From Candidatus Dojkabacteria bacterium (GTDB taxonomy: Bacteria; Patescibacteriota; Dojkabacteria; JAHIVN01), in NCBI GenBank assembly GCA_016932045.1, contig JAFGDO010000011.1:5997-69996 (forward strand): a stretch of DNA of 64,000 nucleotides, written 5' to 3'. The position numbers were made by a program, and so were the translations under genes. The notes below the pieces were generated by a model. It made no database searches, was not told where the DNA came from, and saw only the letters and a list, made by a program, of their open reading frames with translations. Below, piece by piece: positions 19,499-38,058 of the stretch (positions within the stretch are counted from its first letter, which is position 1; each line of letters opens with the position of its first letter).

Positions 19499-19679
19499 TT
19501 CAAATACTCCATGTTTATAGAAATTTATAAACTCCTTTTCCTAAACGCAATAGCAAAACAAATATTACAATCTTATATAAACTATATATTTCAAAGGAAT
19601 TGTGTAAGTTTGTATTAAACTCCTAAGCGGATAAATTATAAAAGAGTGTTTTGATATTCTTTTTCTGTTATTTAGAGCA

Positions 19680-20141: not shown

Positions 20142-20316
20142 ACTAGAAATATAATAAATTAATTCTGAACCCAGTATGAATTTATCAAAGAGAGGAAGCT
20201 GATGCTTGATTTTTATATACTTTATTTCTGACAGGTTGGAAATTCTATATTTAAGAAATGTGCTATTTTGCTGGGGTTTAACGACCTGACGGGAATGTGT
20301 GGTTTCTGACAGAATA

Positions 20317-23283
20317 TTAGGCCTCCTTAATAGCAAATAATCTATTTACCAGTTCTTTTCCCCATGCTTGTGGTGATTGGAAATACTCAAGGGGTTCTCC
20401 TCCTGCATCATCGCTTGCTCTGATCAACATTTCTCTTGATACAATCCCTCTTCTTACTTGAATTTCTATGTGTTCTTCTATTATCCCTTCAACCAATCTG
20501 CCTGCTCTTGCTCCGATTCGAATGAAGCGTACTAGTTCTCCTTCTGTAAGTGGGAGGCTGTATGTTACTGTGGATAAAGCAACTACCATCGCAATGGTTC
20601 TTAGGTCTTTAGCACCACCTAGTTGTCCTGAAATACTTCGAATCTCTTGTAATATTGGCGTTCCTTTCATTAGGTTAGCCTTGATATGGGTTATGTCTCT
20701 TGGCATTATTAGGTCTACTTGTTCTGGAAGCCGATCCAGTTCTTCAACGGTTGTTGGAATTGCAACTTGTGCTTCTACTATGCTATCAAATATTCCATGA
20801 AGCTTTAGTAAATTAATAATTTGTATTCTTGTTTCAAGGGATTGATCGGCTTTGAGTCTCATTGATAGTGTATCTGTAAAAGTTTCCAAGTTTTCAACTC
20901 TTGGTTTTCTCCCTTCAACTCGAGCTAAACCATGATTTTGCGATATGTGCATCGGAGAGTGACCAGATGCGTAAGCAAGGTAGGTTGAGGCGACTATTCG
21001 TGAAAGAGATCTTATTTGTTCAACTTGGGAGGCAGAAAAGGATAGATTTGTACCATGTCTACAAACACTTATGAGTGAGTCAAGTCCCGTTACAGCTGAG
21101 AGTTCAATTACAAAGGTATCTTCAGTATCAAGAAGTTCGGTACGACGAACCTCGGAATCGTCTCTATCTAGTGATTTTGCCGAAGGTCTAAATGCAAAAT
21201 CAACTATATGTGAATGAAAGTCACTTCCAGTTAGTAATCTATTGCCTGCCTTATTATATATTGATCCTCTGATCAGATTTATAACTATGTGCTGAAGCGG
21301 AGGATAAAAACCAATCCCGAAATCATGAGTAAGTCTCTCTAAAGATAAGGCAAAAGCATCCAGTACAGTTTCCCCTTTGATGAACTTAAGTATATTGGGG
21401 TCTGGTCCTATATCAACAACATCTTGTGATTCACCACCTATTGTTACAGCCACAATTAAATTTCCTCTTTCTAGAAGATGGGCTCTTTGTCGAGGCCCCA
21501 AATCATGATAGGCGCAAATGGCACCAATGGAGTCTTGTCTTGGTGATAATTCTAGTCCTAAACCGTATTTTAAGCCCCAATTATATTTGCCATGTTCGTG
21601 GCTGACTATTCTTCTTACAGGGTCGCTAACCATTACTTTTATTTCAAATAAAGCATCAACAGTAAATCCATCGTGTGGAGTTACATGGGGAATACCTGCT
21701 ACAAAATGTACAGCTTCATATCTTGTATCATCTCGCTTGGTTTCAGATGCTTTTAGATACTCATCATTTTGCCTAAAAACCACTAGTCCTAATTGCCTTG
21801 ATAAGAATTCGGCTGTTGGAGTTGCTACCTGCTCTAGAGTGTACCCTTCTTCAAGATCGACATATAAGGTTATACCTGATCCATCTAGTGAGTATCCTTC
21901 AAGGTAACGCTCAAGAAGTTCATCTAATGACGCTTTTCCATTTGCATTTATAGCAGCTCTTCTAATCAATTCTTGGAATTCTGTTAGGGTGATTGGCCTT
22001 CGAGCATCAAAGCCTTCACCTAGGTTTCTATCAGAATTGGCTTTTAGGTATTCATTTAATTCTGCTTTTATTCTTGCATCATATGGACCGACACTTGCTA
22101 CTCCGGGGATTTTAGCTGCTGCATAAAGATCTCTCAATCTAATTGCAGTTCCGTGAAGGAGAATTCTGGCTCTTTGATCTGTGCAGGTCGGTGGGTATCC
22201 ATAAATTCTATAAGCTATACCATTCTGACGCATTTCCATAATGTCTCGGTATGCTCTCCTATCATATGTAAAGAGAGCAAGGGATGTTACCCTATGTTGC
22301 AAGGAGTTCCATTTATGGTATATATCACAAAGTCTATTCCACCAGTATATAGCCCTTTTTGATTCATCATATGCCTCAACAAGGATACGATCATCTTGAG
22401 ATGAAAACTCCTCAAGTGAAATTTTTCCCCACCGAATCATATAGACAACTGTTTCAAGTTGTTTAGGATTTATCCCTCTTGCCATCTCCATAGTTGCAAT
22501 TGAGTCTATTAGTAGTGCTGCCCAAGAAGTGGAATCATTTCCTAAGGCATTAAGACAACGATTGCACTCATGCTGATTGATAACATATGGCTTATGTTGA
22601 CTATATGGATGACGCATATCTAAATCATGTTTTCTTTGTAGCTGTTCAAATCTGGTGGTTTTTTCACCTGAAGATTCATTAATGCCGGAACTATACATTT
22701 TTTGTCGTGTTTCCAAAGCTTCTTGGACATGGATTGATATATGAGAATAGGCAGGAAGTTGTTTGAAAAATGCTGTATTTACAATTACTTGTTGGTCATA
22801 ATCAATAAATGAAGCTCGTATTCCGGAAAGGATCATTGCTGCTATCATGGTTTCTGCTCCTCCTACAAATCCATGCCAAGCTGTTCCATGCATTCCTTTT
22901 CCAGGCAAATCTGTCGGCTCAAGCGGATACGTTTCAAGAAAGATCCTGATAGCCCAAAGCATCTTTAGTTGAACATTTTCCTCTTGTATACTTTCTCCTG
23001 TTGACTCTTTAATGAACGATGGCAGTGTTGTGTATATTGAATGAATCGTATTAACCACTTCTGTTCCAAATACAGTTTCTATCCTTGCAGTGATTGAGTC
23101 TAAAGTGGTTTCCAGGGGTTCAAATGTTGTATGGGGATATTCTCTTTGTACTAATTCCAAAGCTTCTTGGTATGTAAGGAGTAATGGGTGTGATCTTTCA
23201 TATGTTTCACCCTCTAAGACTGCTGATTGTCCTGCTGATTGTTCCGTATTACCTGCTGCAGCAATAAGTTCTCTTAGTTCCAT
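20317..23283 (-). CDS. Large hypothetical protein (988 aa), no family recognised
   Basis: 2.97-kb uninterrupted ORF. GC appears somewhat higher than in the housekeeping genes, from two hand-counted ~64-124-nt samples. No P-loop or other familiar catalytic motifs were seen by eye. Confidence 0.6.
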   Translation of the reverse strand: MELRELIAAAGNTEQSAGQSAVLEGETYERSHPLLLTYQEALELVQREYPHTTFEPLETTLDSITARIETVFGTEVVNTIHSIYTTLPSFIKESTGESIQEENVQLKMLWAIRIFLETYPLEPTDLPGKGMHGTAWHGFVGGAETMIAAMILSGIRASFIDYDQQVIVNTAFFKQLPAYSHISIHVQEALETRQKMYSSGINESSGEKTTRFEQLQRKHDLDMRHPYSQHKPYVINQHECNRCLNALGNDSTSWAALLIDSIATMEMARGINPKQLETVVYMIRWGKISLEEFSSQDDRILVEAYDESKRAIYWWNRLCDIYHKWNSLQHRVTSLALFTYDRRAYRDIMEMRQNGIAYRIYGYPPTCTDQRARILLHGTAIRLRDLYAAAKIPGVASVGPYDARIKAELNEYLKANSDRNLGEGFDARRPITLTEFQELIRRAAINANGKASLDELLERYLEGYSLDGSGITLYVDLEEGYTLEQVATPTAEFLSRQLGLVVFRQNDEYLKASETKRDDTRYEAVHFVAGIPHVTPHDGFTVDALFEIKVMVSDPVRRIVSHEHGKYNWGLKYGLGLELSPRQDSIGAICAYHDLGPRQRAHLLERGNLIVAVTIGGESQDVVDIGPDPNILKFIKGETVLDAFALSLERLTHDFGIGFYPPLQHIVINLIRGSIYNKAGNRLLTGSDFHSHIVDFAFRPSAKSLDRDDSEVRRTELLDTEDTFVIELSAVTGLDSLISVCRHGTNLSFSASQVEQIRSLSRIVASTYLAYASGHSPMHISQNHGLARVEGRKPRVENLETFTDTLSMRLKADQSLETRIQIINLLKLHGIFDSIVEAQVAIPTTVEELDRLPEQVDLIMPRDITHIKANLMKGTPILQEIRSISGQLGGAKDLRTIAMVVALSTVTYSLPLTEGELVRFIRIGARAGRLVEGIIEEHIEIQVRRGIVSREMLIRASDDAGGEPLEYFQSPQAWGKELVNRLFAIKEA

Positions 23284-23440: not shown

Positions 23441-24820
23441 TTAACTGATAAGCCTCAGTCCCCTGCCCTTTATTGTTTCAATAAACCTAGGAGTAGAAGC
23501 TTTGTCCCCAAGCTTTTTTCGGATTCTGGACAATGTTCTGTCAATTGCCCAATCTGAGTATTTCTCAATTGAATTCTGACCCCATAGTATCTCTGCTAGC
23601 GCCTCTCGTGTTACTATCTTTCCCTTGTTCTTGTACAAAAGTTGCAGGATTTTATATTCATTTGTTGTGGGCTCTCTTTTTAGTGGCTTAGCATCAACAT
23701 AAACCGTTTTAGTTTTAGGGTCGATATAAAGTCCTTTTGTTACCGGAATCTCAACAGTTGATTTTTTGCCTGTTTTTGATTTGAGATAAATTTCTAAAAG
23801 TGGAGAAAAAAGTTTTTTTTCGCCATTTTCTTCTTTGATGACGCCGGTATTTTCAAGATATTTTGCTCGGTGATTGATAGGAGTATTAGGATTCTGTACA
23901 AATTCGATCAGAAAATCCTTGTATTCATCAAGTAGCTTTGTCCAAAATTTTTCGCTCCTCGCTAGTGTTGTACTATGAGAAGCTAGTTTTCTTATATCTT
24001 TCTTGTCCAGAATGGAGGCATCTTTGCCACTATCAAAATAAATTCTACTTAAAGCTCTCATATACCCTGGATGTCCTCCTGATATCTCAAATATACTTTG
24101 CTTAATCTTCGAGGTAAACTTAATACCTCTCTCTCTTTCCCATTCCTCAAGACCAAGAAAAGCATCTTCCTTACTTATTGGTTTTAACCAGAATTGTTTA
24201 TTGAGGAAAAGGTCATACAGTTCATCTAGAATTTCAGGTGTTAAGCTTGTAAGTAGATCACGATCGCTACTAAATGCTAATGTGACCTGCCATTTATTTA
24301 TATTTCTAAGTGCCTTTAGTGAATTAAAAAATTGTTTGTCAAAATCAGCAAGAGTGCCGAAATCATCAATAAGGATGCACAGATTAAAGTTTGCTTCTTG
24401 TGTTATGGTCTTTATGATATCCTCAATAGCACTAAAAATTACAAAAAGATCCTGGCCGTTTACAGCATTATCATGAATTTCTTTTATTTGGCTTTGAATC
24501 TTTTCATCCTTGATATTTGCTGCCACAGTCTTTTGGATTCTTGTTAGAAGCAGTCTGTAAAAACCAAGTGGGGAAATATCAAGAAGCTTTGTGAGATCTA
24601 GAAAAACTACGATAAAGTCAATTTTCTCTTTTGGGAATAATTCCTGCCAAAATTCTATATTCTTATCAAATGTCTGAAAAAGATCAGTTTTCCCTATTCC
24701 GGGCATTCCCATAAGTGTAAATGACTCACCTTGCTTGATCTGAGCTAGAATTGCTTTGAGAAGGTCTTTTTTGTATCCCTTTTTAAATCGGACGAAGTTT
24801 TTCTCGTTATGTCCTGACAA
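23441..24820 (-). CDS. P-loop NTPase (AAA_16/STAND-like) fused to a C-terminal OmpR/PhoB-type winged-helix DNA-binding domain
   Basis: Walker A is LMGMPGIGKTDLFQ and Walker B-like is LCILIDDFG. The C-terminus YKILQLLYKNKGKIVTREALAEILWG...IDRTLSRIRKKLGD...IETIKGRGLRL matches the trans_reg_C fold. Confidence 0.7.
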   Translation of the reverse strand: MSGHNEKNFVRFKKGYKKDLLKAILAQIKQGESFTLMGMPGIGKTDLFQTFDKNIEFWQELFPKEKIDFIVVFLDLTKLLDISPLGFYRLLLTRIQKTVAANIKDEKIQSQIKEIHDNAVNGQDLFVIFSAIEDIIKTITQEANFNLCILIDDFGTLADFDKQFFNSLKALRNINKWQVTLAFSSDRDLLTSLTPEILDELYDLFLNKQFWLKPISKEDAFLGLEEWERERGIKFTSKIKQSIFEISGGHPGYMRALSRIYFDSGKDASILDKKDIRKLASHSTTLARSEKFWTKLLDEYKDFLIEFVQNPNTPINHRAKYLENTGVIKEENGEKKLFSPLLEIYLKSKTGKKSTVEIPVTKGLYIDPKTKTVYVDAKPLKREPTTNEYKILQLLYKNKGKIVTREALAEILWGQNSIEKYSDWAIDRTLSRIRKKLGDKASTPRFIETIKGRGLRLIS

Positions 24821-24940
24821 TCCTGATCTCTTAAGAATTTATTAATTTGACAAGATTATATACCCCTGTCAGGATTACTGTCAAGTAAATGTCAGGGGAA
24901 TGGTCAGGTTAGAATTTGTGCTATAGTTATTATATAAATT

Positions 24941-25720
24941 TTATATCTGCTCAATTTTCCTCTTCAAATTTTTTAAGGTTTCTGTTAAATCCTTTGTTTT
25001 TTTTATTAATCCAAATTCCTCGCAAAGCTCAAGTGATTCTTTGAGTTTTAGCTTTTTTAGCTGTTTCTGATTCCTAGATTTAAGGTCATTTAAGCTGCTA
25101 TCTTGAGAAATAGTGCCATTTAATAAGCCTCTTATCACCCCATATATTCCAATTGTCTGCAGTTTATCTGCATCATATAGGATCTTAGCTCCGAGCCGGA
25201 TTATTTTTCTGGAGTAAGGACCAATTTTAGTTATTCTTTTGAAACCTAATTTGTAACCGGTTGAATCGTGGCAACTTATAATTTTTTTCACTGCTTGAGC
25301 GAAATAACGTTCTGCTCCCCAATTATCTAATTTTTTATAGGCTAAAACTGAACACTGATAGCTGTGCTCGTCTTTTTTCCTATAGGAAGGGTATTTTCTT
25401 GATGCACAATCATGCAAAAGAGAGGAAGCAAAGATTAGGACTTTTAATTTGTTTTGTTCTTCTTTTAAAATTTTTCTTCTGTTTAGTATTTTACCCAAGA
25501 GAGAAAAAGATGTGTTGTGAGCCAAGTATAGATGATTTTTATTGTGAGTTATGTCAAGAACTTTTGAATAGCTTTCGGCATATGTGGTAATATTCTGTTT
25601 CAGTTGGTTTGGAAGCGAAAGAATTACTTTCCTTGACCTGATATTGACAGCGCGTAGAAAATTTTTAGCTTCTTGTTTTGATATCACGGGAGTAGAATTA
25701 AATAATAGTAATGGCAGCAA
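24941..25720 (-). CDS. HD-domain phosphohydrolase-family protein
   Basis: The His/Asp motifs are [19 protein letters not shown] and ILYDADKL. The gene overlaps the 3' end of gyrA. Confidence 0.55.
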
Positions 25721-28316
25721 TTTCGTCTCCTTTATGCAAGCTCATGAGCCTGACGCCTGATGTTTGTCTGCTTCTTTTAGGTAGTTCTTTAGTCGGAATT
25801 TTAACTACCTGGCCTTCCTTACTCATGATAAGGAGCTCACTATCGGGGTGATCAAGAATTCTGGCAGCTGACAAGTTACCGGTTTTTTTAGAAAGGCGAG
25901 CTGTAAAAACTCCCTGCCCTCCCCTACCCTGTTTTGGATACTCTTTTATCTTGGTTGCTTTTCCAAGTCCTCTTTCCGAAACAATAAGCATAAGATCTTC
26001 ATTCTTTCGAATGATATCCATGGATATTACTTCGTCCCCTTTATCTTTGAATTTAATTCCGATAACTCCCATAGTAGCTCTTCCGGTAGGTCGGACATCT
26101 TTTTCTGAGAATCGGATACTCCTTCCGTGTCTTGTGACAAGTATGACTTCATTCTCACCTGTTGTTGGTTTTACCCATATCAGTTCATCATGCTCTGCAA
26201 GTTTTATGGCAATCAGTCCATTGGCTCGGATCTTTTCAAATTCTGAAATTTCTGTTTTTTTCACAATTCCAGTTTGTGTTGCCATGAATAGGAACTTATA
26301 AATTTTACCGCCTTTCTCCTGTTTAACTTGTCCCTCTTGAATCACATCCTCCTCCATAATTCCTTCTTTTGATCTTGTAAGAATGCTTGTGATAAGTTCA
26401 TCTTGATCAATGTTTATAAGGTTTATGATAGCTTGTCCTTTTGCTGTTCTTCCAAATTCAGGAATATCATAAACTTTTATCTGAAATACGCGGCCTTTAT
26501 TTGTGAAAAATAATATATCATCATGCGTATTGCAGCTAAAAACATGAGCAACTGCATCTGTTTCTTTGGTTGTCATGCCGACTTTTCCTTTTCCTCCTCG
26601 TCTCTGAATTTTATAGGTGCCTTCTTTTATCCTTTTAATGTAGCCTTGTTCGCTTACTGTAACAATAACTTCTTCGGCTGCAACAAGATCTTCGTCTGAG
26701 AATTCGTCAGCTCTGCCTTTGTATACTTTTGTCCTCCGTTCATCACCGTATTTTTTCCTTATCTCTTTTAACTCCCCCGTGATAATGTCCAAGACTTTCT
26801 CTGGGGTTTTCAGTATTAATAATAGCTCTTTAATTAAACTCTTTATTTCTTTATATTCCTGTTCAATCTTCTGTCTTTCAAGAGCAGCAAGCCTTCTAAG
26901 CTGCATGTCCAAAATCGCCTGTGCTTGGATCTCGGTCAGTTTAAACTTTTTCATTAAATTTATCTTTGCTACATCAGCATCCTTTGATCTGCGTATAGTG
27001 TTGATAACATCATCAAGGTTAGCAAGGGCGATCATTAACCCTTCAAGGATGTGCTCTCGTTCACGCGCTGTTGCAAGATCAAATTCACTTCTCCGAATGA
27101 CTATCTCTTGTCTGTGTTTGATAAATAATTCTAGAATTCTCTTTAGATTCAATACTCTAGGTTCACCATCTACCAAAGCAAGCATATTGGCGTTAAATGC
27201 CTTCTGCATCTCGGTAAATTTATAAAGCTTATTGAGAATGGTTTTAGGCTTTCCTTCGCGCTTGATGTCAACGACAATGCGAATACCGTCCTTGTTTGAT
27301 TCATCACGGAGGTCTCCGATTCCTTCAATTTTTTTATTCTTTACAAGATCGGCTATTTTAGAGACAAGACGGGCTTTATTCACCTGAAAGGGTATCTCGG
27401 AAATGATAATCTGATACTTTCCTCCATTTGTTTCGTGAATTCCTGCTCTTGCTCTCATAAGGATTCTTCCTCGTCCAGTTGCATATGCATTTGCAATTTC
27501 AGCTGCATCATAGATAGCTGCTCCTGTTGGAAAATCAGGCCCGGGGATAAATTCCATCAACTTGTCAACTGCTACTTCTGTTTCAAAATTTGGGAATCTA
27601 TCATCTGGAAGATCCTTAAGATCTTCACGCGTTTTTATATTATTGAAATAGTCTTTGTTTAAGTTGTCTTCACCATTTGACTCCCATTTATTGCCACTTT
27701 TTATAAGATAGCATAGTGCATCGGCGACCTCTCCAAGGTTGTGAGTCGGGATCTTAGTTGCCATTCCGACCGCGATGCCGTCTGCTCCATTTATTAGCAG
27801 ATTTGGAATAGCTGAAGGTAAAACTTTCGGTTCACGGTAACTTCCGTCATATGTTGGTATAAAGTCAACAGTATTCTTTTCAAGCTCACGAAGCATCTCC
27901 ATGGAAATTTTGGCAAGCCTTGCTTCTGTGTATCGCATTGCAGCTGCACCGTCACCATCAATAGAACCAAAGTTACCTTGACCATCAATGAGCATATATC
28001 TCATTGAAAAGTCTTGAGCCATACGAACAAATGCATCATAGACCGAAATGTCGCCATGCGGATGATATTTACCAATAACATCTCCTACTGTTCTTGCCGA
28101 TTTTCTGTAGGACCTGTTCGGAAGAATGCCTAACTTAAACATGGAGTAAAGAATTCTTCTTTGAACGGGTTTGAGTCCATCTTTCACGTCTGGAAGTGCG
28201 CGTGCAACTATGACACTCATTGCATAGTTGATATAACTTGACCGCATTTCAGAAGAAATGCTCGTTGACACAATATTCCCTTCTTCGCTGTTTATTTTCT
28301 TTTGTTTGGCAGCCAT
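25698..28316 (-). CDS. gyrA: DNA gyrase subunit A
   Basis: The N-terminus [27 protein letters not shown] is present. The catalytic Tyr region [10 protein letters not shown] is present. C-terminal beta-pinwheel repeats are present. Confidence 0.95.
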
Positions 28317-28356
28317 CCTTCTTAGAATTAATTACGAAAGAATTAAAGTATTATCT

Positions 28357-28521
28357 TTATTTTATTTCCTTTTGTTCCTCCAAACTATAACTTTGCCTTT
28401 TCTTCCTATTTCCTTCGCTGTATTTTGTGATTAAATAATATATGCCCAAAACCACAATAATTGCGGATACACTGACTGTTGCAATTATTGTTAATCCCCA
28501 GAATAATGCTTCTATGTCCAT
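28357..28521 (-). CDS. Small single-TM protein (54 aa) not in the ORF track, translationally coupled to the AIM24-family gene
   Basis: Manual translation gives MDIEALFWGLTIIATVSVSAIIVVLGIYYLITKYSEGNRKKRQSYSLEEQKEIK. The ATG overlaps the upstream stop as TAATG. Confidence 0.35.
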   Translation of the reverse strand: MDIEALFWGLTIIATVSVSAIIVVLGIYYLITKYSEGNRKKRQSYSLEEQKEIK

Positions 28522-29369
28522 TACCGATTCGCTAACATATCAAAAAATATACTAGCAAAAATGCATCCAAAGAATAAAAGCGAAATAACACATCCAAGAA
28601 TTTGTCTTGAAGCAAATGATTGGGTTGCATTTTGCTGATAATAATTTCTTCCTGCCAGTCCAAATTTTCTTGTTTGTAGCCATACTTTTCCGGGACCTCG
28701 AAGAACTCCTAGGAAAAATCCTTCACCTCCAAACAACCAATTAAATGGTCCTTTGACACTTTGTATATCAAAATCTACCGTATCTTCATATGCAACAAGA
28801 TTTCCCTGATCAACAGCGATTTCCTGGCCATCTTTAAGTTCATACATGACTGCTTCCCCATCGGCAACAAGATGTACTTTCCCCGCTCCTTCTACTTTTT
28901 GCAAGATAAATCCTTTTCCCCCAAAAAGTCCTGCACTGATCCTCTTTGTAAATGCTATTTTTCTTTCAATTCCCTCTTCACTACAAAGGTAGGCTCCCTT
29001 TTGAAAAATGATTCCAGGAGAATTCGTGTTGAGTTGCAGCGGGATAATTTTTCCGGCTTGATCGGTTGTAAAAGTAACTATTCCTGTCCCGCTTGTACAC
29101 GTAAACTTATTTACGAAAATTGATTCTTGAGTAAAAAGACGTGAGATCATCCTTGAGCATCCTTGTCCGTGTGTTGACATTTCAACATTGTTTGTCATCC
29201 AGCTCATCTTGCCTGCCTCACTGTAGATGTGTTCATTCTCATCAAGTTGAACACTTAATGCCTGGAGAGTTGTTCCAATGGTTCTATATGTGATACCTTT
29301 ACTACCTACTTCACCCTTTTCTACAAATTCTTTTTTTGTGACTTTTGTTACCTGATTTTGGTTTGCCAT
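28521..29369 (-). CDS. AIM24/TIGR00266 (DUF124) family protein with a C-terminal TM helix
   Basis: The family core is ...SAGLFGGKGFILQKVEGAGKVHLVADGEAV...GPFNWLFGGEGFFLGVLRGPGKVWLQT. Confidence 0.7.
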   Translation of the reverse strand: MANQNQVTKVTKKEFVEKGEVGSKGITYRTIGTTLQALSVQLDENEHIYSEAGKMSWMTNNVEMSTHGQGCSRMISRLFTQESIFVNKFTCTSGTGIVTFTTDQAGKIIPLQLNTNSPGIIFQKGAYLCSEEGIERKIAFTKRISAGLFGGKGFILQKVEGAGKVHLVADGEAVMYELKDGQEIAVDQGNLVAYEDTVDFDIQSVKGPFNWLFGGEGFFLGVLRGPGKVWLQTRKFGLAGRNYYQQNATQSFASRQILGCVISLLFFGCIFASIFFDMLANR

Positions 29370-29416
29370 AGTTAATTAGTAGTTTAAGTAATATTATTTA
29401 ATACTGTCATATTGTT

Positions 29417-31375
29417 TTAGGCTACAAGGTCTATTTCCGCTTCTTTAGCATTTGTCTGTATGAATTTCTTTCTTGGTGGCACTTCAGTTCCCATAAGTAT
29501 ATCAAAGGTTCTATTTGCCTCTTCAGCGTCTTCAATCGCGATCTTTTTTAGAGTCCTATTTTCAGGGTTCATTGTTGTTTCCCATAGTTGTTCAGCATTC
29601 ATCTCTCCTAACCCTTTAAATCTTTGGATATTTTTGGGTTCTTTTGAACTCTTCTTTAACTTTGATGAAATCTCTTCTAATTCTTCATCATCTTTAATCC
29701 AGTAAAATTCGTCTTTTGAAACTTCAATTTTATATAAAGGTGGGGAAGCTACATAAAGATACCCCTTTTCAATTATCGATTTTAAGTGTCTAAAAAACAG
29801 AGTAAGATAAAGAGTTACGATGTGCTCGCCATCTACATCAGCATCAGCCATGATGATTACTTTATGATACCTAAGTTTCTCGAGATTTAAGGTCTCTCCG
29901 ATTCCACAGCCAAGTGCGATTATTAAATCCTTTAACTTGTCATTTTGGAGTACTTTATCTATCCTATATTTTTCACTATTAATTGGTTTTCCGAAGAGAG
30001 GCAGAATAGCTTGCGTTACTCTGTCGCGTCCCTGTTTTGCAGAGCCGCCGGCACTATCTCCCTCTACTATAAAAATTTCACTATTTTCCGGATTTCGAGA
30101 AGAACAGTCCGCTAATCTCCCAGGAAGAGTACCCCCATCTAATGCACCTTTTCTTACAACGGCCTCCCTTGCAGCTTTTGCAGCCTTTCTAGCTTTGTGA
30201 GATAAAAGACACTTATTAATGATTGATCTAGCATCTTTGGGATTTTCTTCTAGGAAAATCTTTAATCCGTCTTCAACTACTTTTCTTACCCCAGAGGAAG
30301 CCTCAGGATTATTTAGTTTAATTTTAGTCTGTCCTTCATATTGAGGGTCAGGAAGTTTTACTGACAGGATTGCTGTTAAACCTTCCCTTACATCTTCTCC
30401 TGAAAGTCGTGCATCCTTCTCTTTTTCTGTTGATATTTTTTGTAAATAGTCATTTAGACTTTTTGTTAGAGCGGTTCTAAATCCAGTCAGATGTGTACCT
30501 CCCTCTGGATTTAGGATGTTATTTGAAAAAGCAAGTACGTTTTCTTGTAAGTCGTCAACATACTGAAGAGCAACTTCGACGGTTATGTCTTCAAAGGTCT
30601 CGTTTACGTAGAATACACTGGGATGGATATTTTTCTCTTCCCTATTTAAACTTCGGATATATGATTTAATTCCACCCTCATAATGGAATTTAAGTTTACG
30701 GGGAATATTCTTTTCTCCGTTTGCCCTATCTTCTTCCTCTCGTTCGTCTTGGACAATAATTGTGAGTCCACCATTTAAGAATGCAGATTGCCTGAATTTT
30801 TGAAGAAGTTTTTTAAAATTGAACTTAACATCAGAGAATATTTCTTTATCAGGCTTAAAGGTAACTATTGTTCCCGTCCTCTCTGTTTTCCCGAAGGACT
30901 TTAGTTTAGTTGTGGCATTACCTTTTTTGTATTCCTGTTTGTAAACTTTTCCGCCCTTATGTACTTCTATATCAGCTTTTTCGGATAAAGCATTTACAAC
31001 TGCAAGTCCTACTCCATGTAATCCTCCGGCAACTTTATAGCTTTTTCTATCGAATTTTCCACCTGAGTGTAAGGTTGTCATGATGACTTCAAGTGCAGGT
31101 TTACCCGATTTGTGCAAATCAATAGGTATCCCCCTCCCATTATCATCAACCGTAACAGAACCATTTTTATTCATGATGATTTTTATGGTGTCGCAGTACC
31201 CCGCCAAAGCTTCATCAATTGCATTATCCACAATCTCAACAACTAGATGATGGAGACCATATGAGGAGGTGTCACCAATATACATAGCTGGTCGTTTCCT
31301 GACTGCTGCGAGTTGATCGAGTACTACAATTTTTGATGCATCATATGAATCTGTCTGTGCCATATCAGAATACAT
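29417..31375 (-). CDS. gyrB: DNA gyrase subunit B
   Basis: The N-terminal GHKL motif LHHLVVEIVDNAIDEALAG is present, followed by a TOPRIM domain EGDSAGGSAKQGRDR. Length is 652 aa. Confidence 0.95.
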   Translation of the reverse strand: MYSDMAQTDSYDASKIVVLDQLAAVRKRPAMYIGDTSSYGLHHLVVEIVDNAIDEALAGYCDTIKIIMNKNGSVTVDDNGRGIPIDLHKSGKPALEVIMTTLHSGGKFDRKSYKVAGGLHGVGLAVVNALSEKADIEVHKGGKVYKQEYKKGNATTKLKSFGKTERTGTIVTFKPDKEIFSDVKFNFKKLLQKFRQSAFLNGGLTIIVQDEREEEDRANGEKNIPRKLKFHYEGGIKSYIRSLNREEKNIHPSVFYVNETFEDITVEVALQYVDDLQENVLAFSNNILNPEGGTHLTGFRTALTKSLNDYLQKISTEKEKDARLSGEDVREGLTAILSVKLPDPQYEGQTKIKLNNPEASSGVRKVVEDGLKIFLEENPKDARSIINKCLLSHKARKAAKAAREAVVRKGALDGGTLPGRLADCSSRNPENSEIFIVEGDSAGGSAKQGRDRVTQAILPLFGKPINSEKYRIDKVLQNDKLKDLIIALGCGIGETLNLEKLRYHKVIIMADADVDGEHIVTLYLTLFFRHLKSIIEKGYLYVASPPLYKIEVSKDEFYWIKDDEELEEISSKLKKSSKEPKNIQRFKGLGEMNAEQLWETTMNPENRTLKKIAIEDAEEANRTFDILMGTEVPPRKKFIQTNAKEAEIDLVA

Positions 31376-31657: not shown

Positions 31658-32431
31658 TCAATCATCTCCTCTGAGAGGTAGATTTATCATTAAGCTTTCA
31701 AGAGCCAAACGAACGTTTACATTTTTTTCAATCGCATTGCGTGTTAACTCAATAAGGTCGATAATTTCTACTATCTGTAGAGTCTTTCTCGTATTTTTTT
31801 TATTCTTTATCATTTCTTCACGGAAGTAGGTAAGCATATCTTCAATGAGACTATTTGTGTCGTCGATTACCTTTCCTCTGTTTTTTTGACTTACGATTTC
31901 CTCGGCCAGTTTAAATCTTTCTATAATATTGCTTTCTAATACTTTTCTAAAGGTTGTCAAATCTCTTGCCTTCCCTGCTTTCTCACTTGGGTTAAAGACC
32001 TGACATCGAGATATGATTGTGGGGATTAATTTGTGTATATTCGAAGTAGTTAGAATTAAGAAGGTATTCTTAGGAGGTTCTTCCAGAGTTTTAAGAAGGG
32101 CATTTTGAGATTCCTTCGTCATCTTCTCAGATGAGATAATAATTCCAACCTTAAAGTGAGAACAAAATGGCTTGAGTTGAGTTTTGCGGATAAATTCATG
32201 AATTTGCTCAATCTTTATAGTTTTACTGTTTATATTCTCAGGCCAAATCCCAAAAACATCGGCGTGAGTCTTATATGGTTTTTGAGCAGGGATTAATAAT
32301 ATTTCTCTTGCGAACACCTCGGCCAGCCGCTGTTGCTCTTCTACGTCTTTGTAAGAAATAAGAATCGAGGCAGAATTTCCATCTTGACCTACATTTTTAA
32401 TTATATTTTCAATCTTTACTTTCATTGACAA
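31658..32431 (-). CDS. holB: DNA polymerase III delta-prime subunit-like clamp-loader protein
   Basis: QNALLKTLEEPPKNTFLILTT...ISRCQVF is the sensor-1/SRC region. There is no Walker A. Confidence 0.75.
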   Translation of the reverse strand: MSMKVKIENIIKNVGQDGNSASILISYKDVEEQQRLAEVFAREILLIPAQKPYKTHADVFGIWPENINSKTIKIEQIHEFIRKTQLKPFCSHFKVGIIISSEKMTKESQNALLKTLEEPPKNTFLILTTSNIHKLIPTIISRCQVFNPSEKAGKARDLTTFRKVLESNIIERFKLAEEIVSQKNRGKVIDDTNSLIEDMLTYFREEMIKNKKNTRKTLQIVEIIDLIELTRNAIEKNVNVRLALESLMINLPLRGDD

Positions 32432-32562: not shown

Positions 32563-34737
32563 ATGGATAACAATACTGCTCAGAGTCCAGGAGTTAGTGA
32601 CACAACACAAGACGGAAGCAAGTCGCCTTTACTCGGAAGTAACTTTGCTGCTACTTCTCCTCCCTTGCATGATCAGCCGAAAATAACACCAAGTGCTCCT
32701 CAAGTAAAATCTCCATTGGTTGATGTTTTGAAGAATAAAGATGGGGAAGATGCTCAGGTCGGTTCTGTTCCTTCAACTCTTCCTGGAGAAGTTCAACAGG
32801 CTCAAGTCTCTCAAATAGACCCTGTTTCTTCGAATCAAGGAACAGATGCAACTCAAGATATTGCATTAGATGAAAGCAAACAGGGACCTTCATTTAAGGG
32901 TATTACTGTAGATGATTACAAAGGTAAGACGATTGCGGAGATACTACGGGAGAAAGGTAAGTTGAGACCTGAACAATTTGAAGAAGTAAAATTTGAAATC
33001 GCGAGTAGAAAAGGAAGTGAGGAGGAGATCATAAGAAGGAAAGGATGGCTTGAGGAAGATGAGATAGTAAAAGCAAAAGCTGCATCTTATGGTGTTCCAT
33101 ATGTAGATTTAAAAGAAGTTGAGATCCCGCGTGAAATTCTAACAAAGTTGCCTTATGAATCAGCTAGAACACACAAGGCAATTCTGTTTAAAGATGATCC
33201 CAATATTGCTCACGTCGGTATGGAAGATCCTCTGGATATTCAAAGGGTAAGATTTATTGAAAGTATCTTGGGAAAGAGCGTAAAGGCCTATTTTGCAAAC
33301 CCTGGAGACATTAAGGATTATTTGGATACAAAGTATGCAGGCAGGATAGAGACCGAAGTTACTGAGGCAGTAGAAGAAGTCGGAGAAGGTGTTGTGAAGA
33401 TTGAAGAAGGATTAAGGGATATAGCAGAGGTTGAAGACACTATTGCAACTGCACCCGTTGCAAGAATTGTAAATATGGTACTTGAATATGCCGTAAAATT
33501 TAAAGCAAGTGATGTCCACATTGAACCAAGGGAAAAGAAGCTGGTTGTCCGGTTTCGGATAAACGGAGTTATGATGGAAAGACTGCAGCTTCCTCCAACT
33601 CTTATAGCTTCGGTTGTTTCAAGAGTGAAAATTCTCTCAAATCTAAAAATCGATGAGCACAGAATTCCCCAAGATGGGAGGTTTCAGATAAAGGTAGGGA
33701 TAAAGGAAGTAGATCTGAGAGTCTCTATTATGCCTACAGTCCATGGGGAGAAAGTTGTGATTCGTCTTTTAGAGAAAGGCGGTAGTGTGCGGAGACTTGA
33801 GGAAACTGGGATGAGAGGATCGGGTTTTAAGGTTTACCGAGAAGCCTTAGAGGCTACACAAGGAATTCTCCTCGTAACAGGGCCGACTGGTAGCGGAAAG
33901 ACCCAAACTTTAGCAAGTTCATTATTAATTCTTAATAGACCTGATGTAAATATTGTTACCCTTGAGGATCCTGTTGAGGTGAAGGTAGACGGAGTGAATC
34001 AGGTTCAAGTAAATGCTGATGTGGGGCTTACCTTTGCAAAAGGATTGCGATCAATACTCAGGCAAGACCCGGATATTATAATGGTTGGAGAAATCAGAGA
34101 TCAGGAGACAGCTGAACTTGCAGTTCAGGCATCGCTAACGGGACATCTTGTACTAGCAACCTTGCACACCAATAGTGCATCGGGTGCTCTCCCGAGACTA
34201 CTTGATATGAAAGTTGAGCCGTATCTTTTAACTTCCACAGTAAACATTATTGTTGCGCAAAGACTAGTTCGGACTATATGTGATAAGTGCAAAGAGGCAT
34301 ATAAGCCAAGTGAAGAGATAGTTAAGACAATTCATAAGGTTATGGTCGGTCTTGCGGGATTTGATATGTATTCTTTTCCCAAAAGTACAAATCCGCTCTC
34401 TTCTCCGGGACAAGTGAATACTCAAGATCCAAATCAGGTACCTCCCAGGGAGCTTGAAAAGCAACAAGAAGCAAAGCCGGCAAGGGAGGTAATTTTATAT
34501 AGAGGAAAGGGGTGCAGTAAGTGCGGAGATACAGGCTACAGTGGAAGAACTGGAATATTTGAAGTATTAAGGGTGAGTGAGAAGGTCGCACAGCTTATTA
34601 TGGAACACAGGTCTTCTGGAGATATTGAAAGACAGGCGAAGGAAGAAGGTATGATAACTATGGTCCAAGACGGATTTCTGAAAGCTCTTGAAGGGGTAAC
34701 TACAATTGAGGAAGTGCTGAGAGTTCAGAAGAAGTAA
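32563..34737 (+). CDS. pilB: Type IV pilus assembly ATPase PilB (GspE family) with a low-complexity N-terminal extension
   Basis: A GspE_N domain is present. Walker A is LLVTGPTGSGKTQTL. Further motifs are VTLEDPVE and IIMVGEIRDQETAELAVQASLTGHLVLATLHTNSA. A tetra-Cys CxxC...CxxC motif is present. Confidence 0.9.
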   Translation: MDNNTAQSPGVSDTTQDGSKSPLLGSNFAATSPPLHDQPKITPSAPQVKSPLVDVLKNKDGEDAQVGSVPSTLPGEVQQAQVSQIDPVSSNQGTDATQDIALDESKQGPSFKGITVDDYKGKTIAEILREKGKLRPEQFEEVKFEIASRKGSEEEIIRRKGWLEEDEIVKAKAASYGVPYVDLKEVEIPREILTKLPYESARTHKAILFKDDPNIAHVGMEDPLDIQRVRFIESILGKSVKAYFANPGDIKDYLDTKYAGRIETEVTEAVEEVGEGVVKIEEGLRDIAEVEDTIATAPVARIVNMVLEYAVKFKASDVHIEPREKKLVVRFRINGVMMERLQLPPTLIASVVSRVKILSNLKIDEHRIPQDGRFQIKVGIKEVDLRVSIMPTVHGEKVVIRLLEKGGSVRRLEETGMRGSGFKVYREALEATQGILLVTGPTGSGKTQTLASSLLILNRPDVNIVTLEDPVEVKVDGVNQVQVNADVGLTFAKGLRSILRQDPDIIMVGEIRDQETAELAVQASLTGHLVLATLHTNSASGALPRLLDMKVEPYLLTSTVNIIVAQRLVRTICDKCKEAYKPSEEIVKTIHKVMVGLAGFDMYSFPKSTNPLSSPGQVNTQDPNQVPPRELEKQQEAKPAREVILYRGKGCSKCGDTGYSGRTGIFEVLRVSEKVAQLIMEHRSSGDIERQAKEEGMITMVQDGFLKALEGVTTIEEVLRVQKK

Positions 34738-34873
34738 AGGTGAAGATAGTCGGATGGGTTGATTGCCCCTGCCTCGCTGGCAGGCTATGTGATACGTGGC
34801 AGGCGGGCTCCTTGAGCTGGGATTAATAGATAGTTGTATTTTAAAGACAGTGGATTTTAGGTATTAGAAATTC

Positions 34874-34927
34874 CTTTATCTAAATATCTGAATATCTAAT
34901 AACTGATATCTAATATTATCTGAACAA
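34874..34927. repeat. Tandem TATCTRA motif array upstream of pilT
   Basis: tttatctaaatatctgaatatctaataactgatatctaatattatctgaa carries six TATCT(A/G)A units. Confidence 0.45.
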
Positions 34928-34933
34928 ATTAAA

Positions 34934-36148
34934 ATGGCAGAACCAAAAGTTTCACCACTAGGGGAAAATGTAGTTAGTGAGATTTCACCTCGGCCCGCAA
35001 GCCAGGGAGGAGATAGCGCAGTGCCTGCTGACAATCAAGATCAGACTGAGCAGGAAGTAGCTGGAACATTGGGAAATTCAGTGAAAACCGATAACTTAAA
35101 GCTTGGAGATTTGCTCGAGCTGACTGTACGAAATGATGCATCTGACCTTCATATCTCTGTCGGATATCCTATCTTTCTCAGAATAGATGGAAAGTTACAA
35201 AAGTTAGGTGCTGAGATAATCACAAGTGATAGAGCGAAGAATTTGATTTACGAAGTGCTAGATGATCAAAAGCGAGAACTTTACGAAGTGAACAAGGAAA
35301 TAGACTTTTCGTATTCTTTTCAGGAAAAAGCAAGGTTTAGGATAAACGCCTATAATGAGAAGGGAAATCCTGCTGCTGCATTCAGATTGATCCCAACAAA
35401 GATAAGAGCAATTGACGAACTATTCTTACCTAAAATTCTACATGAATTTACAAAACTGCATCAGGGGTTAGTTCTTGTTGTTGGTCCTACTGGACATGGT
35501 AAAAGTACAACTCTTGCTTCGATGCTTCAGGAGATTAATGTCCGGGATGCAAGGCATATACTGACGATCGAGGATCCTATCGAATATCTATATACTCCGG
35601 CACGTTCTCTGGTTGATCAGAGAGAACTTCATCAGGATACACATTCATGGGACATTGCCTTGAGAAATGTTCTGAGACAGGACCCCGACGTTATACTGGT
35701 CGGTGAGATGAGAGATTTTGAAACTATTGCTGCTACTATTACTGCTGCTGAGACAGGTCACTTAGTATTTGCGACTCTGCATACAAATAGTGCCGCTCAA
35801 TCTGTGGACCGTATAATTGATGTTTTTCCAGAACACCAGCAAGCACAGATCCGTATGCAGCTTGCAAATGTGATGGAATCAATAGTATCACAGAGACTTG
35901 TTCCCATCATAGGGGGTGGAAGAAGAGCTGCTTGTGAAGTTATGATCGGGACTGCAGCTGTAAGGAATGCTATAAGAGAGCAAAAGACTTATCAGATAGA
36001 TAATATCATTCAGACGAGTGCCGATGTTGGAATGATGACTCTTGAAAGATCACTTGTTGATCTTGTGAGGGATGGAAAGATTACACTAGAAGAAGCTCAG
36101 AATAACACTACTAAACCGGAGGAGGTATTAAGGTTGGTGAGGAAATAA
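34934..36148 (+). CDS. pilT: Twitching-motility retraction ATPase PilT
   Basis: Walker A is LVLVVGPTGHGKSTTL. Further motifs are ILVGEMRDFETIAATITAAETGHLVFATLHTNSAAQSVDRIIDVFPE and AIRNAIRE. Confidence 0.9.
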   Translation: MAEPKVSPLGENVVSEISPRPASQGGDSAVPADNQDQTEQEVAGTLGNSVKTDNLKLGDLLELTVRNDASDLHISVGYPIFLRIDGKLQKLGAEIITSDRAKNLIYEVLDDQKRELYEVNKEIDFSYSFQEKARFRINAYNEKGNPAAAFRLIPTKIRAIDELFLPKILHEFTKLHQGLVLVVGPTGHGKSTTLASMLQEINVRDARHILTIEDPIEYLYTPARSLVDQRELHQDTHSWDIALRNVLRQDPDVILVGEMRDFETIAATITAAETGHLVFATLHTNSAAQSVDRIIDVFPEHQQAQIRMQLANVMESIVSQRLVPIIGGGRRAACEVMIGTAAVRNAIREQKTYQIDNIIQTSADVGMMTLERSLVDLVRDGKITLEEAQNNTTKPEEVLRLVRK

Positions 36149-36162
36149 ATATATAGTGAGAC

Positions 36163-36210
36163 CTCTAGATAGTCAGATAGCTGGATAGTAAAAATAGGAA
36201 GATAATAGCA
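36163..36210. repeat. Tandem AGATAG/GGATAG motif array upstream of pilC
   Basis: ctctagatagtcagatagctggatagtaaaaataggaagataatag is the reverse-strand form of the TATCT family. Confidence 0.45.
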
Positions 36211-36324
36211 AGTAGCATAAAGCTAGGAGTGAGAGGAATTGCATTATTGAGAATAGTAGTTTATATTTTGCAGTAGGTTAAATATTTTGTAATAAATGAA
36301 TTTAAATTATTAGCAGTATAGGTA

Positions 36325-37536
36325 ATGGCTCTCTATGAATATGTAGCAGTTGAATCATCAGGGAAAACAGTAAAGGGTGACTATGAGGCTAAGGATCGAA
36401 ACGAAGTTGTAGATTTTTTGCATGAAAAAAATCTTGTGGTTGTCCATGTTGATGAAAAGTTAAAGAGGAATCTAAAGGATATTTTTAACATTCAAATCGG
36501 GGGCATTCCACTCACAAACAAAGTTGTTTTTTCCAAACAGCTCGCTACGATGATTTCTGCTGGACTACCACTTCTTCAAGCTCTTGAGGTCCTTGCAAGC
36601 CAAGAGAAGAATGCTCCGTTTAAGGCCTCCCTGGAAAATGTCATACAACTTGTTGAAGGGGGAAGTAAACTATCAAATGCTTTTGCAAAACAGAAAGGGG
36701 TTTATACGGCTGTAGAGTTAAATCTAATTTCTGCTGGGGAAGAAAGTGGTAACCTTGTTGAAATGATTCAGCAGGTAGCAGATAATCTTGAAAAGCAAAA
36801 GGACTTCCAGTCAAAGGTTCGTAGTGCAATGATATACCCTGCAATTATGTTTGTAGCTATTATTGGAGTAGTTGCGCTTCTTATGATTTTTATGGTTCCG
36901 GCAGTTGAAGATCTATACGAGGATTTTGGAGGCGAACTTCCATGGGTTACGAAAGCAATTGTTGCAATTAGCAATTTTATGGTTTCCTTCTGGTGGCTCC
37001 TTGTTTTCATCATAATCTGTGGTCTCGTTGCTTATAGATACTACTACTCTACTCCATCTGGAAGACAAGTGATACACCGGTTAATTTTATCAATGCCTGT
37101 ATTTGGAGATTTGAATACAAAGATTCAGTTAGCCGAGTTCGGCCGGCTTCTTTCGATGCTTTTGACTAGTGGTATTTCAATTATTGAGTCACTAAATATT
37201 GTTTCAGGAGCACTATCAAATGTTCACTTTAAAAAAGCAGTCAAAGATGCTACTTTCGATGTTGAGAAAGGAACTCCTCTTGCTGTACCCCTTTCCAAGA
37301 ATGAGGATTTCCCTTTGATTGTAAGTCGAATCATTGCAACTGGTGAGAGTACGGGTAACTTGGATAAGGTATTAAAAGATCTTGGGAAATACTATCAAAC
37401 TGAAGTAGATTATATGACATCTAACTTGACAAAACTTATGGAACCGATTATCTTATTTATTGTAGGTGGGGTTGTTGCTTTTCTGGCCTTGGTTGTATAT
37501 ATGCCTATTTATAACTTAGCAACTATAGTAGTATAG
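36325..37536 (+). CDS. pilC: Type IV pilus platform protein PilC (GspF family)
   Basis: Two GspF repeats are present, with motifs such as LSMLLTSGISIIESLNIV and ATGESTGNLDKVL. There are three TM helices. Confidence 0.9.
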   Translation: MALYEYVAVESSGKTVKGDYEAKDRNEVVDFLHEKNLVVVHVDEKLKRNLKDIFNIQIGGIPLTNKVVFSKQLATMISAGLPLLQALEVLASQEKNAPFKASLENVIQLVEGGSKLSNAFAKQKGVYTAVELNLISAGEESGNLVEMIQQVADNLEKQKDFQSKVRSAMIYPAIMFVAIIGVVALLMIFMVPAVEDLYEDFGGELPWVTKAIVAISNFMVSFWWLLVFIIICGLVAYRYYYSTPSGRQVIHRLILSMPVFGDLNTKIQLAEFGRLLSMLLTSGISIIESLNIVSGALSNVHFKKAVKDATFDVEKGTPLAVPLSKNEDFPLIVSRIIATGESTGNLDKVLKDLGKYYQTEVDYMTSNLTKLMEPIILFIVGGVVAFLALVVYMPIYNLATIVV

Positions 37537-37566
37537 TATTAATTAAATTTTTAAATTTAAATAAGC

Positions 37567-38058
37567 ATGAAAGTACTAAAAGGGAAGAAGGGGTTTACTC
37601 TAGTTGAATTGCTTGTCGTACTTGCGATTGTCGGTATATTGATCGGACTTGCAGTTGGAGGGATTAGAATTGTACAACAGGTAAACAGAGATACTCAGAG
37701 AAAGGCATGGGCACGAGATGTCCAACTTGCATTAGAGGCAATACAAGAACGCAGGAATCGATATCCAGATGGTATAACTCTTACTGATACCGGGGAGAAG
37801 ATGAAAATAGAAGCTTGTGTTGGAACAGGAGCCAATAAGGTCTGTGATGAAGTCCTCTCGGAAGTAGTTTTTGACATGTCGGAATTCACGACAAATAATT
37901 GTACTGCGGCTGATGTCCCAAGTGAAGTTGAAGACGATGCTGGGCAGATAAGCGGTTGTTATGAGGGTTCTGGTCAAGGTTATTGGTTGTATCTGGACTT
38001 AGAAAGAAGTGGTGAAGGTTATAATGCAAGTAACCTAACAGATCCTCCGACAGATTAA
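37567..38058 (+). CDS. pilA: Type IV major pilin (PilA-like)
   Basis: The class III signal is MKVLKGKKG|FTLVELLVVLAIVGIL with G-1 and E+5. The C-terminal region has two Cys pairs. Confidence 0.75.
   Translation: MKVLKGKKGFTLVELLVVLAIVGILIGLAVGGIRIVQQVNRDTQRKAWARDVQLALEAIQERRNRYPDGITLTDTGEKMKIEACVGTGANKVCDEVLSEVVFDMSEFTTNNCTAADVPSEVEDDAGQISGCYEGSGQGYWLYLDLERSGEGYNASNLTDPPTD

Follow-up and report, generated by a model that had tools for sequence, protein, structure and literature searches.

Why should a gene of the AIM24/TIGR00266 family, followed by an open reading frame (ORF) of only 54 codons, lie between the genes for the two subunits of DNA gyrase? The question is raised by a stretch of 64,000 nucleotides from Candidatus Dojkabacteria bacterium (WS6, Patescibacteria; contig JAFGDO010000011.1), hereafter the window, by which we mean the whole stretch that was analysed. 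Here we describe a family of AIM24-associated transmembrane (TM) microproteins, a previously undescribed partner of a widespread family of unknown function, and a module of the two genes within the gyrase operon. The explanation that we favour, with moderate confidence, is that AIM24 and the microprotein form a two-gene membrane module, that the pair probably came from archaea, and that its position among the gyrase genes serves mainly for expression.

Organization of the locus

On the minus strand of the window, the genes follow one another in the order holB, gyrB, AIM24, 54-aa ORF and gyrA, with the gyrase genes and holB assigned by Pfam. The distances separating gyrB, AIM24, the microprotein gene and gyrA are 47, -1, and 40 nt. 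The features of the locus are as follows.

31658..32431, minus strand: holB (DNA polymerase III delta'), PF13177 E=1.6e-27
29417..31375, minus strand: gyrB (DNA gyrase subunit B, 652 aa), with HATPase_c, DNA_gyraseB, Toprim and DNA_gyraseB_C domains
29370..29416, minus strand: spacer of 47 nt between gyrB and AIM24
28521..29369, minus strand: AIM24/TIGR00266 protein, 282 aa, with a double-stranded beta-helix domain (presumably cytoplasmic) and a C-terminal TM anchor
28917..28937, minus strand: conserved Gly-rich loop GLFGGKG of AIM24, residues 145-151
28722..28742, minus strand: conserved Gly-rich loop NWLFGGE of AIM24, residues 210-216
28530..28625, minus strand: C-terminal TM helix of AIM24, residues 249-280, a helix in the AlphaFold2 (AF2) model
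28519..28523, minus strand: TAATG overlap, in which the AIM24 stop TAA and the microprotein ATG have one base in common
28357..28521, minus strand: membrane microprotein, 54 aa
28426..28509, minus strand: TM helix of the microprotein, residues 5-32, an uncharged stretch of 28 residues
28360..28389, minus strand: C-terminal motif YSLEEQKEIK of the microprotein, residues 45-54
28317..28356, minus strand: spacer of 40 nt between the microprotein gene and gyrA
25698..28316, minus strand: gyrA (DNA gyrase subunit A, 872 aa), DNA_topoisoIV E=4.6e-156 and six DNA_gyraseA_C blades

An earlier note on this DNA had described an AIM24 gene with a C-terminal TM helix lying between gyrB and gyrA in a single orientation, and coordinates, Pfam and the AF2 model all agree with that description. 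The note had also reported a small ORF coupled to AIM24 through TAATG and encoding a single TM helix with a basic tail. The minus strand indeed reads TAATG at 28519-28523, the protein sequence is exactly as it was given, and the helix at residues 5-32 is followed by a tail with seven K/R. The G+C content of the AIM24-microprotein locus (0.36) is the same as that of the window. A protein identical to the 54-aa product is held at NCBI as 'hypothetical protein JW766_02775' from a Dojkabacteria metagenome-assembled genome (MAG), and the gene was also called in a Logan assembly; the identical AIM24 protein carries the NCBI name 'TIGR00266 family protein' and was likewise gene-called in a Logan assembly. 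The small ORF is therefore already annotated in databases, but without a name.

Conservation and architecture of the microprotein

The microprotein is short, matches no Pfam, NCBIfam or PADLOC family, and when used as a single query finds only itself; an alignment derived from the loci was needed to bring out its relatives. Taken alone, these properties would suit a chance frame or an annotation artefact. When related loci were compared, however, 18 distinct sequences of 48-57 aa were found to fill the slot between AIM24 and gyrA in Dojkabacteria-type loci, each starting between -4 and +16 nt from the AIM24 stop (18 lineages). They have a common layout, consisting of an N-terminus with a net charge of 0 to -3, a run of 24-32 uncharged residues, and a tail with a net charge of +1 to +8 that ends in [YFIL]-x-[LI]-x-x-Q-K-E-[IV]-x-stop. 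In the window, the acidic N-terminus is MDIE and the basic tail ends in YSLEEQKEIK. Mean pairwise identity at codon positions 1, 2 and 3 is 0.45, 0.60 and 0.37, and NG86 omega values for the closest microprotein pairs range from 0.11 to 0.40, with dS saturated. A profile built from the alignment (A4) retrieved 45 proteins at E<=1e-3 from 1.84 billion representatives, all of them 49-61 aa long and with the same layout, although in a few the K of the motif is replaced (QRE, QNE, QVE, QTE) or the triplet reads SKE. One divergent match, P0164, is flanked by annotated AIM24 and gyrA genes; another, P0162, lies on a short contig where it overlaps ORFs on both sides, and its neighbours have no Pfam record. 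Position, length, architecture and motif are kept in 20 lineages and 45 representatives, and the substitutions are of the coding type. Judged by this conservation, the small ORF is a real gene, and the chance that it is a spurious frame is close to negligible. The dN/dS comparison that had been proposed earlier as a check on the ORF was thus carried out, and the amino-acid sequence proved to be conserved.

AF2 models the microprotein as one helix (residues 2-45) with a predicted local distance difference test score (pLDDT) of ~89-97 across the TM segment; the final nine residues, most of the motif among them, form a coil with pLDDT ~57. A 45-aa form, P0130, is related to the microprotein at L007:7857-8009 and ends in ...KKLTLKS at the point where the L007 type continues with QKEIK. 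It is recorded on three contigs and, going by its sequence, may be a natural truncation that has lost the conserved tail. The idea of a type I toxin-like hydrophobic peptide was rejected on three grounds, namely the chaining of the gene within a housekeeping operon, its conservation with AIM24 across domains, and the conserved hydrophilic tail.

Conservation of the gyrase linkage in Dojkabacteria

Relatives were collected by a scan of one genome per species, a metagenome scan, and look-ups of exact proteins, which together gave ~22 distinct Dojkabacteria-type lineages with AIM24 proteins of 53-78% identity. By tblastn with the window proteins, the order holB-gyrB-AIM24-gyrA was found on a single strand in every lineage in which the contig reaches far enough. 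The possibility that the linkage is incidental, which the earlier note had left open pending a comparison of relatives, fails against this result. Among >130 AIM24 genes of other bacteria, none has a same-strand gyrB or gyrA flank; the gyrA genes found 1.5-2 kb away on the opposite strand in two Anaerolineae loci (L028, L032) were treated as a coincidence within one lineage. The gyrB-AIM24-gyrA arrangement is far beyond chance. In locus L164 (6021-8639, on a 300-kb contig), gyrA is called as three successive ORFs of 510, 165, and 195 aa, which probably reflects assembly frameshift errors rather than a split gene.

The microprotein is present in 20 of the ~22 lineages. In the two that are without it, AIM24 is separated from gyrA by 10 and 1 nt, and since neighbor-joining (NJ) trees place both inside microprotein-bearing clades, two independent losses are indicated. 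The identical three clades appear in the NJ tree of GyrA+GyrB and in that of AIM24; this agreement indicates that the insertion is old and has been inherited vertically.

Such constancy could also reflect a functional tie to gyrase, in which AIM24 and the microprotein would serve as a membrane tether, assembly factor or regulator and the four products would be made in fixed proportions. The invariant position in ~22 lineages fits this explanation, as do the overlap of the microprotein stop with the gyrA ATG in 6/18 lineages, the abutment of AIM24 on gyrA (1 and 10 nt) after loss of the microprotein, the near match of AIM24 to GyrB in conservation, and the restriction of the AIM24 TM anchor to the Dojkabacteria clade. 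On the other hand, position is all that speaks for the tie, the microprotein has been lost twice, the >130 other AIM24 genes have no such flank, and the archaeal pair described below has no gyrase gene nearby, standing either alone or between nop5 and fibrillarin genes. No sequence or fold likeness to the gyrase binders and regulators YacG, GyrI/SbmC, and the pentapeptide-repeat proteins MfpA/Qnr was found. We regard a functional coupling to gyrase as unlikely. Most likely, the place of the pair in the gyrase operon has been inherited vertically throughout the class and entails co-expression only.

The AIM24 protein of the window

The AIM24 protein of the window matches PF01987 with E=5.1e-64 (216.2 bits against a cut-off of 25.7), residues 28-234 covering positions 1-205 of the 205-position model, and passes the curated NCBIfam cut-off for TIGR00266 marginally (99.0 vs. 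96.6 bits). Its fold is the double-stranded beta-helix of the known structures 1YOX and 1PG6. The helix at residues 249-280 was modeled by AF2 with a block-mean pLDDT of ~71-96, and the C-terminus is hydrophobic in 46/46 aligned Dojkabacteria-type homologues; among the loci examined, the AIM24 proteins of archaea and other bacteria have no such C-terminal TM helix. Longer homologues (P0019, P0051) contain extra N- or C-terminal residues only, and neither is an AIM24-microprotein fusion.

In the alignment, G150, G151, and G153 are invariant at the GLFGGKG loop, and N210, G215, and E216 at the NWLFGGE loop; both loops have pLDDT <50. From the model, these two most conserved loops of the protein, GLFGGKG and NWLFGGEG, may be functional flexible loops. 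Two threonines, T33 (29271-29273) and T95 (29085-29087), are >=91% conserved in the clade and are substituted in both lineages without the microprotein, by S and P in P0065 and by E and A in P0070. This substitution pattern provides a weak lead to a possible docking surface.

The AIM24-microprotein pair in archaea

In 13/13 distinct archaeal loci, AIM24 is followed by a small TM ORF that is coupled to it and has a related tail; of the bacterial loci fetched from outside Dojkabacteria, none has such an ORF. The archaeal loci come from MAGs labelled Woesearchaeota, Nanoarchaeota, Altiarchaeales, 'Methanosarcinales' and 'archaeon', and from three metagenome contigs with nop5 and fibrillarin genes; several of the MAG taxon labels, such as 'Saccharibacteria' and 'Methanosarcinales', come from automated binning and are probably imprecise. 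In the 13 loci, the partner starts between -4 and +25 nt from the AIM24 stop, and its tail reads, for example, YLTLKDLKEIK, YSLRDLKEV, YNLKSLKEIK, SYKLKDIKE, or EYSIDQGEEVK. Alignment of the Dojkabacteria and archaeal microprotein profiles by hhalign gave a probability of 95% and E=3.6e-8 over the end of the TM segment, the linker and the motif. The family that we propose is accordingly defined by an N-terminal TM helix, a basic linker and a C-terminal tail [YFIL]-x-[LI]-x-x-[QLFI]-K-E-[IV], a pattern to which the window protein, itself part of alignment A4, conforms. A six-frame regular-expression scan for a TM segment plus motif, in the loci then collected, gave matches solely downstream of AIM24, apart from one that is likely false. 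In the archaeal AIM24 proteins the TM helix is missing, and the C-terminus is formed by a Gly-rich amphipathic tail.

No gyrase gene lies near the archaeal pairs. In 9/13 loci nop5 is directly upstream, and in 8 of those 9 fibrillarin is downstream; archaeal Nop5 and fibrillarin are normally encoded in one operon (PMC5558902). The junctions around the pair are mostly ATGA overlaps, at times with one further inserted ORF. The Altiarchaeales pair stands alone, and four loci carry variant partners with no adjoining nop5, fibrillarin or gyrase gene. These variants comprise one 70-aa ORF ending in EYSIDQGEEVK, one multi-TM ORF of 111 aa that contains NKYKPFQQQEVGK close to its C-terminus, and two ORFs of 71-73 aa whose hydrophobic N-terminal region is longer, perhaps amounting to two TM helices, and which end in SYKLKDIKE and SYSLKKVK.

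L036:5251-8693: pair within nop5-fibrillarin
L017:5985-9264: pair within nop5-fibrillarin
L139:3175-6603: pair within nop5-fibrillarin
L029:5946-8602: pair within nop5-fibrillarin
L041, L054, L113, L147, L015: pair within nop5-fibrillarin
L175:4001-4893: AIM24 with variant partner (Altiarchaeales)
L038:3970-5095: AIM24 with variant partner
L059:7001-7932: AIM24 with variant partner
L069:6986-7974: AIM24 with variant partner

Since the same pair occurs in archaea without gyrase, the microprotein belongs with AIM24, and the sequence comparisons indicate that it is probably a partner for AIM24 rather than a factor for gyrase. By the same token, the arrangement in Dojkabacteria can be explained without invoking a functional link to gyrase.

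The archaeal nop5-fibrillarin gap holds other ORFs as well, including a LAGLIDADG-like ORF (L139:4052-4768), an RNase_H_2/WYL ORF (L036:6213-6992), and an AlaX-like ORF (L017:7911-8615), and looks like an insertion hot spot. It is conceivable that the AIM24-microprotein pair is, or once was, a mobile or selfish cassette that lodged between essential subunit genes, where it would be expressed and hard to delete. The wedging of the pair between subunit genes in two domains (gyrB|gyrA and nop5|fibrillarin), the further inserts in the archaeal gap, and the presence of the partner in archaea and one bacterial class, which implies at least one inter-domain transfer, would all fit. However, the pair is without a nuclease, recombinase or repeat, the AIM24 tree follows the gyrase tree as expected from long vertical descent, and local G+C equals that of the window. 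Just two insertion contexts are known, so that coincidence is possible. PADLOC returned no match, and the sole result in PHROGs was a weak one for the microprotein (E=0.0026) to a family of unknown function; an origin in a defence system or phage was ruled out on these searches. We consider a selfish cassette decidedly improbable.

The confinement of the partner to archaea and Dojkabacteria makes an archaeal origin of the pair likely, with the proviso that the AIM24 tree is too poorly resolved for proof. In an NJ tree of 156 AIM24 sequences, no sister group was resolved for the Dojkabacteria clade.

Transcription and the translation of gyrA

The earlier note had taken the arrangement to suggest co-transcription with gyrase. 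No terminator-like site was found on the minus strand between gyrB and gyrA. In the 47-nt spacer between gyrB and AIM24, the best promoter-like match (9/12) is not above that of shuffled sequence, and promoter-like matches between gyrB and gyrA are no commoner than in shuffles. With these junctions, and with tight or overlapping ones in the relatives, co-transcription from gyrB to gyrA is plausible. The locus has no Rfam match, and the RNA from the motif to the gyrA start gave folding z-scores of -1.76, for the 40-nt spacer of the window, and -1.43, not significant against shuffles. With no Rfam match, terminator-like site, or significant fold, the presence of an attenuator or other regulatory RNA in the interval from the microprotein gene to gyrA was rejected.

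The place of the small ORF immediately upstream of gyrA suggests a further explanation, namely that it encodes a cis-acting leader or coupling peptide for gyrA (MifM/SecM-like), or that its QKE codons are the gyrA ribosome-binding site. An N-terminal TM helix and conserved residues at a fixed 2 codons from the stop would be in keeping with this, and in the six overlapping cases AAGGA or AAGGAG occurs inside the QKE codons, ~9 nt before the gyrA ATG. The distance from the microprotein stop to the gyrA ATG nevertheless varies from -4 to +106 nt over the 18 lineages, and the motif is retained with the gyrA start 90-106 nt away. QKE is invariant in 18/18 sequences with mixed codon usage (CAA/CAG 13/5, AAA/AAG 10/8, GAA/GAG 15/3), and the AAA (10/18) and GAA (15/18) codons would weaken any Shine-Dalgarno sequence; the motif Leu, at -3, is retained via four codons (TTA, TTG, CTC, and CTG) across the 18 loci. 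Since QKE and Leu are kept despite synonymous codon variation, selection acts on the peptide and not on the gyrA ribosome-binding site. An account of the QKE codons by a Shine-Dalgarno sequence only was ruled out by the wobble variation together with the variable distance to gyrA. A leader peptide is also at odds with the two lineages that manage without the small ORF, with the homologous archaeal tail that precedes fibrillarin, AlaX or nothing, and with the insignificant RNA folds noted above. To our knowledge, the tail of the microprotein resembles no published arrest motif. A cis-acting role in gyrA expression is, in our estimation, very improbable.

A candidate membrane module and its history

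We propose that AIM24 is tail-anchored in the membrane of Dojkabacteria and that the translationally coupled microprotein spans the membrane once, from an outer N-terminus to a cytoplasmic C-terminus. The TM helix of the microprotein would pack beside the AIM24 anchor, and its tail motif would dock on the beta-helix domain of AIM24 at the inner face of the membrane; a coil of pLDDT ~57 in the motif region is what would be expected of a linear docking motif. In archaea, the partner would hold an AIM24 that is devoid of a TM helix at the membrane. An ancestor of the sampled Dojkabacteria lineages would have obtained the pair from archaea, with insertion between gyrB and gyrA, and the pair would then have been passed on by vertical descent within one transcription unit running from holB/gyrB to gyrA. 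The gyrase position could provide constitutive, growth-linked, and translationally chained expression, and no gyrase-specific function would be required.

Several observations weigh against this explanation. Two lineages lost the microprotein yet retain AIM24, which indicates that the partner is dispensable in some backgrounds. AIM24 is conserved almost as well as GyrB (56-75% vs. 62-77% identity to the window), and the 100% retention of AIM24 between gyrB and gyrA would be equally expected from a functional gyrase tie. In addition, although 8/15 of the nearest non-Dojkabacteria AIM24 proteins are microprotein-bearing archaeal ones, the distances are almost tied and the tree is poorly resolved.

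A bolder hypothesis is that AIM24 and the microprotein act as a membrane-bound factor for new multi-subunit nucleic-acid enzymes, i.e., gyrase A2B2 in Dojkabacteria and the Nop5-fibrillarin heterodimer in archaea. The pair might retain nascent subunits and the polycistronic mRNA at the membrane, or act as a gate on assembly. If true, this would explain the independent placement of the pair between subunit genes, with chained stops and starts, in two domains; we hold it to be a distinctly poor prospect.

The favoured explanation, a membrane module acquired from archaea and lodged in the gyrase operon for expression, has several implications. AIM24/TIGR00266 ranks with the most widespread prokaryotic families of unknown function, and a membrane microprotein of ~50-70 aa with a short C-terminal motif would be its first conserved partner. 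The pair supports the view that AIM24 acts at the inner membrane face, and links archaea and one class of Patescibacteria across domains. It also provides a class-wide example of foreign genes fixed within a gyrB-gyrA operon, with a parallel in the archaeal nop5-fibrillarin operon, and bears on the expression of acquired genes in very small genomes. Finally, it warns against inferring function from operon position alone.

Neighbouring genes in the window

Downstream of gyrA, a 259-aa ORF (24941-25720, minus strand) with a sub-threshold HD-domain match (E=0.006) overlaps the gyrA 3' end by 23 nt; it had no tblastn match in the other related loci and is thus lineage-specific. The next gene (23441-24820, minus strand) encodes a 459-aa AAA+/STAND-like NTPase with a C-terminal winged-helix Trans_reg_C domain and a weak match to PADLOC mad8 (E=2.4e-4), and is preceded at 24855-24884 by a perfect sigma-70-like promoter, TTGACA-18-TATAAT. 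This NTPase gene is conserved downstream of gyrA in one Dojkabacteria clade, with GreA in its place in others. The stretches 19046-20336 and 20317-23283 of the window (minus strand) hold two adjacent GreA-like paralogues, one of 218 aa that is extended at the N-terminus and one of 150 aa, and next to them a 988-aa ORF without a Pfam match.

A type IV pilus cluster (32563-39018, plus strand) diverges from holB. It encodes two ATPases, a PilB-like one with MshEN and a second one of the T2SSE family, together with PilC (T2SSF), a prepilin peptidase, and a pilin that bears an N-methylation motif. The related loci keep the divergent junction pilB|holB. Farther along, at 43696-46731 on the plus strand, lies the gene for a 1011-aa protein with a Hint (intein/hedgehog-type) match toward its N-terminal side and a fibronectin type III domain.

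Comparison with known systems

A full-text literature search, within the searchable library, found no paper on the microprotein or on the gyrB-AIM24-gyrA and nop5-AIM24-fibrillarin arrangements. The earlier statement that the function of bacterial AIM24 is unknown holds, since literature searches gave no function for AIM24 in prokaryotes. The family is among the top conserved uncharacterised families of archaea (PMC6393860), and PMC5822837, citing Anantharaman et al. (2012), reports an association of AIM24 with ter (tellurite-resistance) clusters. PA3696 (PDB 1YOX) and SpyM3_0169 (PDB 1PG6) are AIM24/TIGR00266 proteins (PF01987, formerly DUF124) that were obtained as soluble structural-genomics products. 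Unlike these proteins, the AIM24 of the window has a C-terminal TM anchor, a microprotein partner, and a location in the gyrase operon.

In eukaryotes, plant AIM24-B proteins are extended at the C-terminus by a segment that includes one or two TM helices (PMC10203443). Two of them, PAWH1 and PAWH2, are described in PMC6677890 as components of the Hrd1 complex of endoplasmic reticulum-associated degradation, in which they are accessory or stabilising subunits and not enzymes. Yeast Aim24 is associated with MICOS, the inner mitochondrial membrane, and respiratory supercomplexes. Like the protein of the window, PAWH1/PAWH2 and Aim24 place an AIM24 domain at a membrane; in their case, however, the membranes are those of eukaryotic organelles and no microprotein partner has been described.

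Like the microprotein, the MifM and SecM leaders have a membrane-targeting segment at the N-terminus and a conserved stretch at the C-terminus, and are coupled upstream of a gene. They differ in that the microprotein locus has no hairpin sequestering a ribosome-binding site and its spacing to gyrA is variable (-4 to +106 nt). Moreover, the gene that follows the microprotein is not for a membrane-insertion or secretion factor, and the small ORF accompanies AIM24 in archaea as well as in Dojkabacteria. Free-standing homing-endonuclease genes are known between subunit genes of essential enzymes, e.g., mobE between nrdA and nrdB of phage T4. As with mobE, the pair is foreign to the co-transcribed subunit genes that surround it; unlike mobE, it has no nuclease domain and is vertically inherited.

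The closest counterpart is the archaeal AIM24 (arCOG01907) with its TM microprotein. It differs from the Dojkabacteria pair in that its AIM24 is without a TM helix, L, F or I replaces the Q of the motif, and the flanking genes are nop5 and fibrillarin or unrelated ones. It is nonetheless the same two-gene module, with a coupling of -4 to +25 nt and a partner that, as in Dojkabacteria, consists of a TM segment, a basic linker, and a tail of the form Y-x-L-x-x-hydrophobic-K-E-[IV]. As in Dojkabacteria, too, the archaeal pair is found mostly between two subunit genes of an essential complex, joined to them by overlapping stops and starts.

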